From Candidatus Zhuqueibacterota bacterium (GTDB lineage: Bacteria > Zhuqueibacterota > Zhuqueibacteria > Thermofontimicrobiales > Thermofontimicrobiaceae), in contig JBMOPW010000034.1 in assembly GCA_049322915.1 (NCBI GenBank), forward strand, positions 256,001 through 320,000: a DNA stretch of 64,000 bases, given 5' to 3'. This document shows, piece by piece, positions 44,616-48,751 of the stretch. A program made the translations under genes and the position numbers. A model generated the notes under the pieces. That model was not told the origin of the DNA and did not search any database. It saw only the letters and a list, made by a program, of their open reading frames with translations. Every line of letters starts with the position of its first letter. Within the stretch, counting starts at the first letter, position 1.

Positions 44616-45368
44616 TCACTTTTCAATGATGACTTCAATGGTACTGCCCTCTTCCCAACCATCCAATTCCCTGGCCAGTGATTCTACATTGTTCTGCAGG
44701 ATTTTCTGAACAAACGGCACGATGGAAATCCGCCTCCCGCCGATTTTCAGAATCACCCGCGATGTGTCAACGGTGCAATCCGCGCGCGACTTCCGGCCCT
44801 GGATAATCGCCTCGACCAGCTTCGGGCAGGTCAGTCCGCAGAGCGTGCAGCAGGCGTCATCCACGTAAGGCAGCATCGGGAACACTTTCCCGGCCACCAA
44901 CTCCCACAATTTCTGCGCCTGGTCTGCTTCCATGGGATTGAACACGGTGAGTCCCCGATACTCCTGGCGTTTGGTCCCCACAATCCCGGAGAAGGCGAAA
45001 GTCCGATTGTCGAAAAACGCATCCAGATCCGCCTCAGTAGCGCCACAAACGATTTTGGGCAGTGGAAAATCATCGAAGCCCTCCACCACGAGCCAGTCCG
45101 CATCGATTTTTTGGACGATCTCCATGAAATCCATTCGTTGATCGTAGAGGAAATCGGTCTCCTTTTCGCCGCGAGCGACCACAGGATTGGCGCCAGCAGC
45201 TTTGTGGATGAAGGAATTTTTATTCGGCTGATCGATCTGAAAACCTTCGAAATGGATCTGTTTAATGGAGGCGACTCGCTGCCCGCCTACCTTGATTCGG
45301 TGAATGAGTTCCTTGACCGTTGTCGTTTTTCCGGTATTGTGATACCCGCATACCTGGAATGCAAACAT
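44616..45368 (-). CDS. mobB: Molybdopterin-guanine dinucleotide biosynthesis protein B with C-terminal Fe-S-type domain
   Basis: GYHNTGKTT P-loop, VASIK, LVVEGF...PKI; CxxCxxxC...C cluster; VPFVQ.IL tail; GGAG SD before ATG 45368. Confidence 0.82.
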   Translation of the reverse strand: MFAFQVCGYHNTGKTTTVKELIHRIKVGGQRVASIKQIHFEGFQIDQPNKNSFIHKAAGANPVVARGEKETDFLYDQRMDFMEIVQKIDADWLVVEGFDDFPLPKIVCGATEADLDAFFDNRTFAFSGIVGTKRQEYRGLTVFNPMEADQAQKLWELVAGKVFPMLPYVDDACCTLCGLTCPKLVEAIIQGRKSRADCTVDTSRVILKIGGRRISIVPFVQKILQNNVESLARELDGWEEGSTIEVIIEK

Positions 45369-45514
45369 GGCGTTTCTCCGTTTAAATTTTCGCTGCATGG
45401 GCGCCGGGGATCATTCTGCCCAAATCAATTCGCGGAAAAGACCTTCCTGCGAGCGCATTCTCCCGGTCACCCGCTTATTTTCAGTGCATAGTCTATGTTT
45501 TTCGTTCATTCCAA

Positions 45515-46264
45515 TCATCGATGGAAAAGGTCGTAAATCCCCCAGCCATTGACGCACGCGAGCAACACCAGCACAAGCACATCCGGTGAGGCGATGGAAA
45601 AAGCGCGATCGATTCGGACTCTTCCCTGAACGCCATAGCCGCGCAGTTCCAGCGCCAGAGCCGAGTATGCGACAAAATGCATCCCGCGAAACAGCAGCGG
45701 GATGAGCAGCATTTTCAGCATCAAATATTTGTTTTTCAGACTCAGATTCCGGAGCTGAATTCCCCGGAATCGAATTGACCACAGCCCTTTTTTCGCCTCC
45801 TCAAAAATGAACGGAATGAATTTCAGCGTGGTCAGAATGATCAGGCTCATCTGGATCGGCATGCGGATTTTAGTCAGGAAATGAAAGAAGTCAAATAAAG
45901 GAATCTGGCCAAAGATGAACGCCAGCATGAAAATGATCATGAAACGAATCCACAGCAGAATGGCTTCATTCAGTCCGTTAGAAAAAATGAGCGGAAATCC
46001 GTGGAAAGCGAACAGGATGGTCCCCTGCCTCCGAAAGACAATCTGGACAATTGAGATGACGCACAGCATCAGACCGATCTGGGAGAAGCGTCGCAGGAAC
46101 ACTCTGAACTCGTCGGGCGCAAGCACAGCGATCCAGCCGATCAATAGCAGCAGCCAGACCAGCGGCATGCGAAAGTCGGTGGCGTACACGCCCCAGAAGG
46201 TCGCTGACACGCCGGCACAGAGGATGGTTAAAAAATGCAATTTCATATTTTGGAAGAGCATCAA
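45515..46264 (-). CDS. ECF transporter T component
   Basis: TM helices; LKFIP, IRFRG and LELRGY (the two conserved Arg motifs of EcfT). Confidence 0.88.
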   Translation of the reverse strand: MMLFQNMKLHFLTILCAGVSATFWGVYATDFRMPLVWLLLLIGWIAVLAPDEFRVFLRRFSQIGLMLCVISIVQIVFRRQGTILFAFHGFPLIFSNGLNEAILLWIRFMIIFMLAFIFGQIPLFDFFHFLTKIRMPIQMSLIILTTLKFIPFIFEEAKKGLWSIRFRGIQLRNLSLKNKYLMLKMLLIPLLFRGMHFVAYSALALELRGYGVQGRVRIDRAFSIASPDVLVLVLLACVNGWGIYDLFHR

Positions 46265-46389
46265 TGAAATTATAAAACACTCGACTGTGATTTTTTAATT
46301 GCTGAACGTACCGGCGCCGATCACAGACTGGAAATCGCTTCGGCCCAACACTCCCGAGCACGGTCACTGTCAGTTCAACGCGCTGTGAA

Positions 46390-47040
46390 TCATTCGCTTC
46401 CCAGGGCAGCGCCATTGCCCGGGGCAAGCGGCCAGGCATCCACCTTTTTCCAGATGCCGCTTGCACTCAGTGGCTGGCGCCACTCCGTACTATCCGGCAT
46501 GAAACCCAACACGCACGTCGGAGCTTTTTCGGATTGGCCATTTGCTTCCAACAGGAACTCGACCACCTGAGCGATCCGATGTTGCGAAAGATTCGCTGGC
46601 AGGTAGCCGATAATGAAAAACTCCGGCTGTTTCACCCATTGCGTCAGCAGCCAGAGCAATTTCGTTTCTCCTTCGGAGAGGAAGAAAGGATTCTGTTGCG
46701 CCAGCGACGCCATATCAAATCGCTGCAACAGAACGAGAGCATCCGGCAGAAATCCGGAAGCGGACGTTGCATAATTGTCCCTGGCAGCGATTGCATCGGC
46801 TATTTCCAGTTCGACCGTTTCGTTCAGAAACGTACCGACCGATGCATTGGGCGCCCAACCGATTCTCCGCCCGATTGCCGGCAATTCCTGAGCCTCGCGA
46901 CCCCATAATTTCTGTTTTCGGCCCTGCTGAAAGGGTTGCACCAACTGGCCGGCCAGATAGCGATTGATCTCTTCGGTATCTCGCAGAGCTACCAGATAGT
47001 GAAACGGGCGCGGGAAATGATGTCGTAGCCATTCAATCAT
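46390..47040 (-). CDS. Degenerate ECF ATPase-like protein (signature kept, Walker A/B lost)
   Basis: FLNETVELEI and NPFFLSEGETK resemble EcfA helical domain/signature; no GxxGxGKT; Walker B reads FFIIGY. Confidence 0.6.
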   Translation of the reverse strand: MIEWLRHHFPRPFHYLVALRDTEEINRYLAGQLVQPFQQGRKQKLWGREAQELPAIGRRIGWAPNASVGTFLNETVELEIADAIAARDNYATSASGFLPDALVLLQRFDMASLAQQNPFFLSEGETKLLWLLTQWVKQPEFFIIGYLPANLSQHRIAQVVEFLLEANGQSEKAPTCVLGFMPDSTEWRQPLSASGIWKKVDAWPLAPGNGAALGSE

Positions 47041-47704
47041 AGCGAGCCGTCAATTGTCCCTGGGTGAGAATCCATTTGGCGATGCGCTCATCCGTCGTCT
47101 GGTGATCGATGAAAATGACCGATTTCTGGCGCTCCATGAGCAGCGCAAAGAAATCCTGCCATTGGCCCATTTCAATTGCGGAGAAACCATTCATGACTTC
47201 ATCGAACAAAAACAGCGTGGCATTCTGCAGAAAGTAGATGAACGTCAACGCCAGCACCTTATCGGAAAAATCCATCTGACGGTACGGTCGATTCAGGCAT
47301 TCCCTGAAACGAGGGAAAATGCCGATGAATTCCTCACGCCGAACGTCAAAATCGCTCTGCTCGGTTTTTAGCAGCGACGTCGTGAATATCATTTCATCCT
47401 TCAAATTTTCCATCATCAGGAAAAAATCGATATTTTTACCCGGGACAAAACCGACCGCAGGGAACAGAGCGTTCGGCGCTGTCTGGAAAACCGCTGAATT
47501 GTCGAAGTAGATTTCACCCTGCAAAATACGACCTCGTTCGAAATGGGGAATCATTCCGACGATCAATTTGAGCAGGGTCGTTTTACCTGAGCCATTATCT
47601 CCGACTAACTGGACGATCTCTGCGCGATCCATTTTGCAGGATACGTTCTGAAAAAGCGGCTCATTCCGCCAGCCGAATGTTAGATTGTTTATGGACAGCA
47701 GCAT
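47033..47704 (-). CDS. ECF/ABC ATPase (Walker A/B kept, signature degenerate)
   Basis: GDNGSGKTT, G.IP.F..G...GEI, LFLFDE, IDH; signature position reads MDFSDK. Confidence 0.8.
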   Translation of the reverse strand: MLLSINNLTFGWRNEPLFQNVSCKMDRAEIVQLVGDNGSGKTTLLKLIVGMIPHFERGRILQGEIYFDNSAVFQTAPNALFPAVGFVPGKNIDFFLMMENLKDEMIFTTSLLKTEQSDFDVRREEFIGIFPRFRECLNRPYRQMDFSDKVLALTFIYFLQNATLFLFDEVMNGFSAIEMGQWQDFFALLMERQKSVIFIDHQTTDERIAKWILTQGQLTARYD

Positions 47705-47714
47705 GGCACTTCAT

Positions 47715-48269
47715 TCACTGGATGGTTTCCGGTTTTTGAAACGCCGGGAAAGCTTTCATCAAACCGCTGTAAAGCGCCCAGCTCAGATACCCGGCCACGC
47801 CGCCGAATAGAAACGACGGAATTAAACTGAGGATCAATGGAATTTTAGGCAGATGCATGATCATGAAGCCAACCAGCAATGCGCCGCTCACATTGCCCAG
47901 GGCCGTCGGGAAAAATAGCAGCCAATGACTTCGGAACGACCGGATCAATAAAAACCCGAGATCGATGAAAACTCCGGGTACAGTGTAAGTCAGCAATGTG
48001 AGAATGCCGTGCGAGCCATACAGGCCGGTGACCATTACGGCGATGCCTTGAATCAGTCCGACGAAGGTCGCAGCGCCAACGCGCTTTACCACCAGCAACG
48101 CCAGCATGGGCCAAATCATATAAATCGCACCGGCAATAGAACCGGATGGGATGAACAGCGCTGACCCAATCAGTTTCGCCAGGGGACCAACAATCGGCTT
48201 CAGGGCAATGCCGCATGCAGCCATGAGCGCGATGAAAACCGCATCCAGAGTAGATATTTTTTTCAGCAT
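47715..48269 (-). CDS. ECF transporter S (substrate-binding) component
   Basis: 184 aa, about 6 TM; ST.D..FIA, V.R.GAAT..G..QG; first gene of an S-A-A'-T cluster. Confidence 0.82.
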   Translation of the reverse strand: MLKKISTLDAVFIALMAACGIALKPIVGPLAKLIGSALFIPSGSIAGAIYMIWPMLALLVVKRVGAATFVGLIQGIAVMVTGLYGSHGILTLLTYTVPGVFIDLGFLLIRSFRSHWLLFFPTALGNVSGALLVGFMIMHLPKIPLILSLIPSFLFGGVAGYLSWALYSGLMKAFPAFQKPETIQ

Positions 48270-48615
48270 ACGATCCTGTTTTTAGCCCGCATTATTCATT
48301 GTATTTTTAAAGGAAGCGGGATAACCTGAATGGTGCATAAATTTAAAATTCGAATATAAAACTGAGTTTGATTTTGCATATACATTCACACATTATGAAA
48401 ACATAATGTTAAGCTGGGCTATTGGAGAATTCAAGAATAATTCAGGTTAGTGTGAATGAAAAAATCGATATTGTCCGAGCCAGTGTCACTGGTTTTTGAA
48501 AGGACTATTTCCCGCAGTCAGCGACGCCCAATCCAACCCATTTGATTTCAACGTCCCAAAATCATCGATGGGGACTGTTCGTTTTCTTTCATCATCATCG
48601 GCAACAGCGGCTCTT

Positions 48616-48649
48616 AAAAAAATGGGTAACCATATATCAGTTACCCATT
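48616..48649 (-). terminator. Rho-independent terminator of selC
   Basis: AATGGGTAAC-9nt-GTTACCCATT perfect stem followed by a U run on the minus strand, 3 nt after the tRNA CCA. Confidence 0.8.
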
Positions 48650-48652
48650 CAA

Positions 48653-48751
48653 TGGCGGGAATGTGTGGGAATCGAACCCACCTGTCCCGACTCTGGTCGG
48701 GGCACTACAGATTTGAAGTCTGCGGGGCCCACCAGGTACCCTTCCACTCCC
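48653..48751 (-). tRNA. selC: tRNA-Sec (anticodon UCA)
   Basis: 99 nt GGGAGTGG...GCAGA-CTTCAAA-TCTGT, long variable arm CCCGAC-CAGA-GTCGGG, T arm GTGGG-TTCGATT-CCCAC, discriminator G + CCA; TGGT D-loop. Confidence 0.95.

Follow-up and report, generated by a model that had tools for sequence, protein, structure and literature searches.

We analysed a stretch of 64,000 nucleotides (hereafter referred to as the window; G000:C34:256001-320000) from the genome of a Candidatus Zhuqueibacterota bacterium (6.25 Mb in 45 contigs, 96.3% complete), in which five co-directional minus-strand genes follow the gene for tRNA-Sec (selC). These genes encode, in order, the S component of an energy-coupling factor (ECF) transporter, an ATPase (A), an open reading frame (ORF) at the position of the second ATPase (A'), the T component, and a MobB-type protein with a cysteine-rich C-terminal domain (hereafter referred to as MobB/FeS). 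The cluster is probably the inner-membrane and cytoplasmic core of a multi-locus system importing the tungsten or molybdenum pyranopterin cofactor (Wco or Moco) or its pterin moiety. A preliminary description of the window, made from the sequence alone, had placed the ECF genes and mobB co-directionally after tRNA-Sec and had proposed the salvage of a pterin cofactor, its precursor or the metal. All the parts were found on the minus strand where it had put them, and the proposed salvage is supported by a gap in the Moa pathway, by Moco/tungsten cofactor (Tuco) riboswitches, by fusions of the S component, by the folds of accessory proteins and by an anticorrelation with MoaC. The five genes are as follows:

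47715..48269, minus strand: S component, 184 amino acids (PF09819, 45.1 bits; cut-off 25.2)
47033..47704, minus strand: ATPase A, 223 amino acids (PF00005, 43.7 bits, residues 19-90 only)
46390..47040, minus strand: A'-position protein, 216 amino acids, overlapping A by 8 nucleotides, without a Pfam or NCBIfam match
45515..46264, minus strand: T component (EcfT/CbiQ family), 249 amino acids (CbiQ PF02361, 62.8 bits; cut-off 25)
44616..45398, minus strand: MobB/FeS, 260 amino acids (PF03205, 78.8 bits; cut-off 26.6)

Cofactor-dependent enzymes in a genome lacking the early Moco pathway

Whole-genome searches yielded no match for MoaC (PF01967), the C-terminal domain of MoaA (PF06463), MoaE (PF02391) or PF00994 (MogA/MoaB/MoeA-type); the same searches were positive in 11 to 13 of 14 control genomes. 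Four PF00384 matches were obtained in this genome. One is the alpha subunit of formate dehydrogenase-N (FdhA; TIGR01553, 1151 bits), whose gene has one in-frame TGA and lies after those for MobA, FdhD and FdhE and before those for Fe-S and NrfD subunits. Two more are Psr/Phs-like molybdopterin oxidoreductases, which have Fe-S and NrfD partners and are encoded on the 755-kb contig that contains the window; an ActB/Qrc-like protein and three AOR-family proteins are encoded in the genome as well. An XdhC gene adjoins an NTP_transf_3 gene, and a MoeA/Glp-like gene scores below all curated cut-offs. Judged by its genes, the organism therefore possesses the later steps of cofactor maturation, along with six or more pterin-dependent enzymes, but not the early pathway.

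The only MoeA relative (L016:9430-10641, contig C7 of G000) obtained its top score with the divisome protein Glp (NF045515, 201 bits; cut-off 475); Pfam recognised its N-terminal domain only, and its role as a metal insertase is uncertain. No clear ModA was found in the genome, in which the best PF13531 match is a sulfate-binding protein encoded with CysT. Searches of the genome by phmmer with TupA-like, kinase-fold (c3), 249-amino-acid (c7) and DUF364 queries returned no homologue, XdhC alone being matched.

Distribution of the S component and of MoaC

Whether carriers of the transporter lack the early pathway had been proposed as a check, and they do: in 35 other carrier genomes, MoaC (0/35) and MoaE (0/35) were both absent, as they are from the window's genome, while MoeA_N was found in 3/35, PF01568 in 13/35 and AOR in 30/35. 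The general absence of MoeA in carriers argues for a metal-loaded form of the imported compound. Of the 167 genomes of the same phylum, 19 contained S and 59 MoaC, none having both (0/19 carriers versus 59/148 non-carriers); the MoaC count includes two unpublished genomes (G193 and G197), without which it is 57/165. A sample of 151 Cloacimonadota genomes contained S in 109 and MoaC in 12, the latter being found in 2/109 carriers versus 10/42 non-carriers. Within the order of the window's organism (21 genomes), S was detected in 15, MobB/FeS in 13 and the secreted protein described below in 11. Two genomes (G160 and G162) lack S and retain the secreted protein; the MobB/FeS gene of G162 ends at a contig edge, and assembly gaps are therefore likely in these two cases.

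Riboswitches upstream of related operons

Of 44 loci scanned, 15 carry RF01055, the Moco/Tuco riboswitch, ahead of the S operon and in the same orientation (5/10, 2/9, 3/9, 3/11 and 2/5 in the five scan batches). All five same- or near-phylum loci of the type lipoprotein, TonB-dependent receptor, S, SUOX-like protein, A, A', T carry it, tandem copies are present in L092 and L093, and in L109 it lies ahead of a neighbouring ATP-binding cassette (ABC) system instead of the S operon. The scan did not detect it in the window, in the four Cloacimonadota loci covered or in the five KSB1-type or Caldithrix loci covered whose arrangement is that of the window (L020, L022, L024, L026 and L034). Elsewhere in the window's own genome, RF01055 (73.1 bits; L064:2866-2985, corresponding to G000 C35:96865-96984) precedes a lipoprotein-receptor pair. 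Stem P3 is missing in all six of the RF01055 alignments printed, and Moco RNAs without P3 are tied to tungsten-cofactor genes in the part of Regulski 2008 available to us (PMC2408646). The thiamine pyrophosphate (TPP) riboswitch, RF00059, was found neither in the window nor in any of the 44 loci. The preliminary description had held that linkage of S homologues to TPP or B12 riboswitches would speak against cofactor salvage; the opposite was observed, with RF01055 as the element ahead of S operons. A cobalamin riboswitch (83.8 bits; L047:6599-6787, minus strand) lies upstream of an unannotated 422-amino-acid ORF beside one Cloacimonadota S operon.

The S component and its fusions

The hydropathy profile of the S component indicates multiple transmembrane segments, and its Pfam match, PF09819, shows that it is not CbiM/NikM-like. 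We identified 108 close homologues (47-100% identity), of which those at 56-67% identity carry the source name 'candidate division KSB1'. An exhaustive search with the S profile recovered only 287 cluster representatives at E≤1e-3 among 1.84 billion, and the S component of the window is here the founding member of a small subfamily.

A fusion scan of 15 long S representatives revealed S joined to Oxidored_molyb (PF00174) in four, MobA-like NTP_transf_3 joined to S and Oxidored_molyb in one, and S joined to Phosphodiest (type-I phosphodiesterase/nucleotide pyrophosphatase) in three. No second family was recognised in the remaining seven, four of which have a C-terminus that aligns with this Oxidored_molyb-like domain. 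In every fusion, S and its additional domain are separated by an extra hydrophobic (transmembrane) helix. S components have their termini in the cytoplasm. Given the extra helix, these cytoplasmic termini and the signal peptides of the unfused homologues, the pterin-fold and phosphodiesterase domains would lie outside the cytoplasm and the MobA domain inside it. A name look-up of the fused S proteins found none on record.

Accessory proteins encoded outside the window

In 19 loci, the gene after S encodes a signal-peptide protein homologous to the fused Oxidored_molyb-like domain. In the window's organism, a diderm, the accessory genes are unlinked, the system being split over three loci and including a TonB-dependent receptor. 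The secreted homologue (E 1.5e-30) is encoded at C14:338829-339866 and is followed by a 582-amino-acid protein with a weak Phosphodiest match that is an orthologue of the phosphodiesterase-like genes in L027 and L031. An AlphaFold2 model of the secreted protein, based on a 16-row alignment (predicted local distance difference test, pLDDT, 75.7), was compared with the PDB by Foldseek. Seven matches had E≤0.001, including sulfite dehydrogenase (2blf, E 9e-5), the molybdenum fragment of nitrate reductase, sulfite oxidase and one PruR chain (7kom, E 1e-4, TMt 0.65). Three more PruR chains (7rkb with neopterin, 7kos and 7kp2) were matched at E 0.002-0.005, with TMt values for PruR of 0.55-0.65, and YedY (1xdy) was also among the matches.

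The secreted SUOX-like family has an invariant D-x-Y motif and an invariant Trp. Sequence alignments of the fused and secreted SUOX-like domains contain no conserved Cys column, the position of the molybdenum ligand not having been placed by structural alignment. In PruR, the pterin lies between a Tyr and a Trp, an Asn occupies the second position ahead of this Tyr, and the Cys that ligates molybdenum is missing (PMC11194511). The D-x-Y and Trp residues of the family appear to correspond to these pterin-holding residues. With its modelled fold, its secretion signal and its lack of a conserved Cys, the secreted protein can be assigned to the SUOX/PruR fold and is predicted to bind a pterin.

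The lipoprotein (264 amino acids, E 3e-67) and the TonB-dependent receptor (E 1e-158) downstream of the riboswitch on contig C35 (C35:97274-100015) are orthologues of the L027-L031-type genes and lie about 3 kb downstream of the formate dehydrogenase operon. The nearest NCBIfam model of the receptor is BtuB (TIGR01779), at 158 bits, below the cut-off of 599.7. An AlphaFold2 model of the lipoprotein (pLDDT 76.7) gave PruR 7kom as its best PDB match (E 0.007, TMt 0.56), and an atlas look-up reached Oxidored_molyb clusters at lead level only (0.81; TM below 0.5); the modelled likeness to PruR is thus suggestive but weak. The region upstream of the MobA-FdhD-FdhE-FdhA(Sec) genes on the same contig (L015:5024-8293) encodes a Tat-signal 4Fe-4S protein, an NrfD-like membrane protein and a multihaem cytochrome c3, and thioredoxin-like and porin-like genes are located between the formate dehydrogenase operon and the riboswitch. 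Next to the lipoprotein-receptor pair and on the opposite strand, a minus-strand set (L064:6344-9930, G000 C35:100343-103929) encodes a NikR-like regulator, a TonB-dependent receptor (623 amino acids), a PF12822 S component (168 amino acids) and a methyltransferase; here again an outer-membrane receptor accompanies an ECF S component, this one from a different family.

MobB/FeS

The last gene of the cluster encodes the sole MobB of the genome. The N-terminal part of this protein is a P-loop MobB domain; its C-terminal domain contains four Cys residues (CxxCGxxC...C), which are invariant in all 15 aligned orthologues (15/15). The match to PF04060 ('FeS') is weak (E 0.014). Its best NCBIfam model is NF011064 (PRK14494), at 118.9 bits against a cut-off of 418 (alignment over residues 13-259 of 260); TIGR00176 was matched at 74.9 bits, just under the cut-off of 76.2, and MobB chains in the PDB (4oyh and 1np6) match residues 14-155 (E 2e-10). 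The window protein thus shares the P-loop MobB domain with MobB of E. coli and B. subtilis, and this domain together with a C-terminal Cys-rich domain with the PRK14494 family, but its scores fall short of every curated NCBIfam cut-off. It also differs from the MobB/FeS proteins encoded with mobA or moeA in being the product of the last gene of a transporter operon. It is presumed to act as a cytoplasmic receiver or chaperone for the imported cofactor.

ATPase pair and T component

The ATPase motifs were aligned for the window and 19 homologues, comprising 9 KSB1-type and 11 Cloacimonadota loci with the same gene order. In all nine KSB1-type pairs, including that of the window, A retains Walker A, the D-E of Walker B and the H-loop and has lost LSGGQ, whereas the A'-position protein has no Walker A, Walker B or H-loop and keeps a signature-like LSEGE motif; the Cloacimonadota pairs are canonical. 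A gene is present at the A' site in 9/9 KSB1-type loci with both ATPase-position genes. From these motifs, A' is presumed to be a degenerate partner of A, and the complementary losses would imply a single composite ATP site. The T component also matched TIGR02454 (28.7 bits), below the cut-off. The S (PF09819) and T (PF02361) components, and the co-directional clustering of the S, A, A' and T genes, are features shared with group-I ECF transporters. Two T fusions were encountered in metagenome loci, one with a purple acid phosphatase (640 amino acids, L065:10340-12262) and one with an ATPase (687 amino acids, L077:199-2262).

Gene order in related loci

Scanning with a pattern derived from 42 aligned S homologues identified 36 loci, in KSB1-like, Calditrichota-like, Zixibacteria-like and Cloacimonadota bins. 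Of the 11 own-phylum-type loci with T, seven have MobB/FeS as the next gene after it (L020, L021, L022, L023, L026, L030 and L034); the four others (L024, L029, L031 and L035) have no MobB/FeS there, and it follows T in none of the Cloacimonadota loci, which encode a deaminase, S, a 308-amino-acid secreted protein, A, A' and T in this order. In five loci (L027-L031), S is preceded by NTPase_1, a riboswitch, a 270-amino-acid protein and a TonB-dependent receptor, in that order. Where the contig continues (L029-L031), a secreted protein of 340-410 amino acids, A, A' and T come next, followed in L030 by MobB/FeS. A thiamine pyrophosphokinase gene lies downstream in one of the 14 annotated loci (L038).

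We also performed a metagenome scan with alignment A4 as the search pattern, which yielded 477 S relatives; 80 loci, representing 59 distinct S sequences, were kept. An Oxidored_molyb-like neighbour (PF00174-like, SUOX-like) was present within 6 kb of S in 44/59 distinct loci and a phosphodiesterase near S in 27/59. MobB/FeS was found in 12/59, with E values of 1e-20 to 1e-59 against the window protein, and is encoded after T in 10 of the 24 loci whose downstream sequence extends for 5.5 kb or more. The same design recurs in this distant branch, in which a typical operon, that of locus L102, consists of a riboswitch and genes for Oxidored_molyb (372 amino acids), DUF364, Oxidored_molyb (189 amino acids), FecCD, an ABC ATPase, Peripla_BP_2, a 249-amino-acid protein, S, Phosphodiest (506 amino acids), Oxidored_molyb (177 amino acids), A, A', T, MobB/FeS (249 amino acids) and a Bud32/RIO-like kinase-fold protein. 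XdhC occurs with NTPase_1 and a T component fused to a purple acid phosphatase in L065, and a TupA-like (PBP_like_2) ABC system lies beside the S operon in L109. The neighbourhood analysis of S homologues that had been proposed thus recovered MobB/FeS after T, SUOX-like neighbours and Oxidored_molyb, MobA and phosphodiesterase fusions.

Leader, selC and flanking genes

The region upstream of S contains the following features:

48270..48615, minus strand: leader and promoter region of the ECF cluster, 346 nucleotides, with no recognisable riboswitch
48616..48646, minus strand: terminator-like hairpin after selC (7-bp stem, 9-nucleotide loop, an A and then T7), read from the sequence
48653..48751, minus strand: tRNA-Sec, selC (ARAGORN; Rfam RF01852, 63 bits)

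Rfam searches of the leader and cluster, at gathering scores and at E values up to 10, detected the tRNA-Sec and nothing else above chance, in agreement with the earlier observation that no vitamin riboswitch is recognisable in the leader. A consensus terminator scan identified no terminator inside the cluster; it omits the hairpin after selC, because its loop limit is 8 nucleotides and the loop has 9. The T-to-MobB gap is between -38 and +36 nucleotides in 12/19 loci, and mobB of the window is presumed to be co-transcribed with the ECF genes. Since selC has its own hairpin and T-run, it is a neighbour outside the operon. Adjacency of selC and S was observed in 4/17 related loci, all with an S component 57-76% identical to the query, and, as it is seen with close S homologues only, it looks like inherited synteny. 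A functional link to selC was accordingly rejected. Downstream of MobB/FeS, the window contains gatC, kdsB, pyrG and kdsA; close relatives have these genes and selC around the cluster in an identical order.

A proposed import route and its alternatives

We propose the following route. The BtuB-like TonB-dependent receptor and its 264-amino-acid lipoprotein partner, encoded on C35 behind the P3-less riboswitch, would bring the compound through the outer membrane. In the periplasm it would be captured by the secreted SUOX/PruR-fold protein encoded on C14; the phosphodiesterase of the alkaline-phosphatase superfamily encoded beside this protein may trim dinucleotide forms. The S component would then bind the compound, and the module of T, A and A', with its single competent ATP site, would drive its passage through the inner membrane. 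MobB/FeS would receive the labile cofactor and pass it on to MobA, the MoeA-like protein, XdhC/MocA and apo-enzymes. The PruR-like short cleft and the presence of phosphodiesterase, phosphatase and kinase-fold genes suggest that trimmed forms may be handled. It has not quite an even chance of being true, in our estimation, that whole anaerobic lineages (much of Cloacimonadota, several KSB1-like families and Firmicutes-like digester and sediment organisms) are pyranopterin auxotrophs importing the intact, metal-loaded cofactor made by their neighbours through a TonB-dependent receptor, a PruR-fold protein, a phosphodiesterase, a single-site ECF transporter and a MobB/FeS chaperone.

Several observations weigh against cofactor import by this cluster. 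The window cluster itself has no riboswitch, and the Moco riboswitch is also described upstream of molybdate and tungstate transporters in Regulski 2008 (PMC2408646). Promoter-like sites were found within the cluster by consensus scanning, the best (11/12) lying just upstream of gatC, and a gap of 116 nucleotides precedes mobB. By sequence, the S profile matched no solved structure at E≤1. A and A' align by BLASTP at E 1.8, and hhalign of A' against canonical second ATPases gave a probability of 4.5%, in register over the signature-to-Walker-B stretch only. The label A' given initially therefore lacks proof by sequence, and A' as a demonstrable relative of ATPases was not established. PruR binds small non-Moco pterins (neopterin and monapterin) and, according to the report on it (PMC11194511), has a cleft that is too short for Moco, such that the fold match argues for 'a pterin' and not specifically for the whole cofactor. 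Two Cloacimonadota genomes (G264 and G302) contain both S and MoaC. Three genomes of the same family, G155 (73% complete), G156 (97%) and G157 (93%), lack S, MobB/FeS, the SUOX-like protein and MoaC, yet have AOR and PF01568, so the system cannot be the only route, or the biosynthetic gap has another explanation. All the genomes are metagenome bins, and related genomes are not independent samples. Which way the compound travels, in what chemical form, and what MobB/FeS does in the process are inferred.

These observations bear differently on the alternatives. It is unlikely that the ECF transporter takes up the metal alone, as tungstate, molybdate or a chelate, in the manner of CbiMNQO/NikMNQO for cobalt and nickel, with MobB/FeS serving in metal delivery. 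The known occurrence of RF01055 ahead of oxyanion transporters, its position ahead of the PBP_like_2 ABC system in L109, the MoeA-like gene and the lack of a clear ModA or a TupA-like hit in the window's genome would accord with such a function, but it leaves the pterin of carriers lacking MoaC and MoaE unexplained, and the 32/35 carriers without MoeA_N could not insert the metal. Moreover, an oxyanion requires neither an accessory pterin-binding fold nor phosphodiesterases, and the S component is not of the CbiM/NikM type. A different small molecule as the cargo, either a non-Moco pterin (neopterin, monapterin or a folate-branch compound) or thiamine/hydroxymethylpyrimidine (HMP), as for a YkoE-type PF09819 protein, seems distinctly improbable. 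The riboswitch found senses Moco/Tuco, the linked genes are those for MobB, MobA and XdhC, and the anticorrelation is with MoaC, even though S matches PF09819 and the small proteins matched by the secreted protein are PruR chains, which bind neopterin and monapterin. The thiamine variant was rejected, because the TPP riboswitch was present in none of the 44 loci or the window and the thiamine pyrophosphokinase gene in a single locus.

The transporter might also work outwards, moving Moco/Wco to load Sec-exported SUOX-fold surface proteins, and ECF-type flavin export for extracytosolic flavoproteins is reportedly known in Listeria. In many operons there are indeed several genes for Oxidored_molyb-like proteins that a signal peptide or membrane anchor places outside the cytoplasm, and some contain ApbE, FMN_bind and Fer4_5, which are typical of extracytosolic redox systems. 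However, carriers of the window branch, in which MoaC and MoaE are absent, have nothing to export, a TonB-dependent receptor, an importer, belongs to the same riboswitch-controlled operon in five loci, the aligned SUOX-like domains show no conserved Cys column and the cytoplasmic MobA fusion fits processing after import; we consider export very improbable. Chance juxtaposition, in which an unrelated ECF transporter merely lies beside mobB and selC in this lineage, is hardly credible. It would be compatible with the lack of a regulatory element in the window cluster and with the conserved order of selC, gatC, kdsB, pyrG and kdsA in close relatives, which indicates inherited local synteny, but not with the MobB/FeS orthologue (E ~1e-58) encoded after T in a remote metagenome branch, where the flanking genes are quite unlike those of the window; fusions, riboswitches and phyletic pattern all point the same way.

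Comparison with known systems

The closest counterparts are the group-I ECF transporters YkoEDC and ThiUVW for thiamine/HMP, which likewise have a small PF09819 S component, a CbiQ-family T component of their own and their own ATPase genes in one cluster; YkoE is presumably a member of PF09819. The window system differs from them in lacking a TPP riboswitch, with Moco/Tuco riboswitches in its relatives, in having one presumably degenerate ATP site, in its additional TonB receptor, secreted pterin-fold protein, phosphodiesterase and MobB/FeS, and in the small size of its S subfamily (287 representatives among 1.84 billion), which has no solved S-component match by sequence. CbiMNQO and NikMNQO share with it a CbiQ-type T component, a CbiO-like ATPase and a dedicated module. 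Unlike these, it has no CbiM/NikM or CbiN, its predicted cargo is organic and its context is that of pterins and not of B12 or nickel. ModABC, TupABC and WtpABC likewise supply molybdenum and tungsten enzymes under the same riboswitch class, but carry the metal only, with a periplasmic substrate-binding protein and a type-I ABC core. B12 uptake follows a comparable logic: there, too, a TonB receptor under riboswitch control, a binding protein and an inner-membrane importer powered by ATP serve to acquire a complex cofactor not synthesised by the cell; the riboswitch and the binding-protein fold are different, and the core is an ECF and not a type-II ABC transporter.

The secreted partners share with PruR (7kom, 7rkb, 7kos and 7kp2) the truncated SUOX fold, export and the absence of a conserved Cys column. 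PruR controls a cyclic di-GMP enzyme and binds small non-Moco pterins, as stated in the accessible part of its description (PMC11194511), whereas the domain described here is linked or fused to a transporter, often occurs in tandem copies and is paired with a phosphodiesterase, with an identity to PruR of 15-17%. Ready-made Moco from other organisms is also used by C. elegans, through its diet, but this is a eukaryote for which no transporter is known. To our knowledge, the view in textbooks and reviews is that Moco is too labile for uptake and is made in every cell using it. In the part of a 2021 review available to us, C. elegans is the only known exception to de novo synthesis (PMC9026282), and the accessible part of a 2013 survey of riboswitch regulons has no category for Moco uptake (PMC3766115). 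A literature search covering the main texts of articles found no description of an ECF or other transporter for Moco or molybdopterin, consistent with the earlier remark that no ECF transporter for Moco or Wco had been characterised.

If import of the cofactor is confirmed, this would be the first transporter of Moco at the cofactor level in any organism, and Moco/Wco would become a traded 'vitamin' in microbial communities. It would explain abundant syntrophs and fermenters with AOR and formate dehydrogenase but without moaA, moaC and moaDE, and metabolic models would have to rescore molybdenum and tungsten enzymes in genomes lacking the pathway. The transporter and its binding protein would provide a handle on the delivery and stabilisation of the cofactor, a long-standing practical problem, and ECF transporters would gain a new substrate class together with a naturally single-site ATPase pair.

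Additional genes in related operons

Genes for ApbE, FMN_bind and Fer4_5 (NapH-like) lie beside S in L092, L098, L115 and L133. In L092, ApbE lies between the tandem Moco riboswitch and S, hinting at an extracytoplasmic redox step. FecCD/Peripla_BP_2 type-II ABC importers are encoded in the same riboswitch-controlled operons as S, giving two importers in one operon. The DUF364 protein of L102 (L102:2907-3656; DUF364/DUF4213) carries the annotation 'heavy-metal chelation', and the 249-amino-acid protein of that operon (L102:7209-7958) is weakly like TiaS/methanogenesis marker 11. In eight loci (L102:13753-14499 and seven more), a Bud32/RIO/APH-like kinase-fold protein of about 248 amino acids is encoded after MobB/FeS with a gap of at most 7 nucleotides; it could re-phosphorylate a dephosphorylated pterin.

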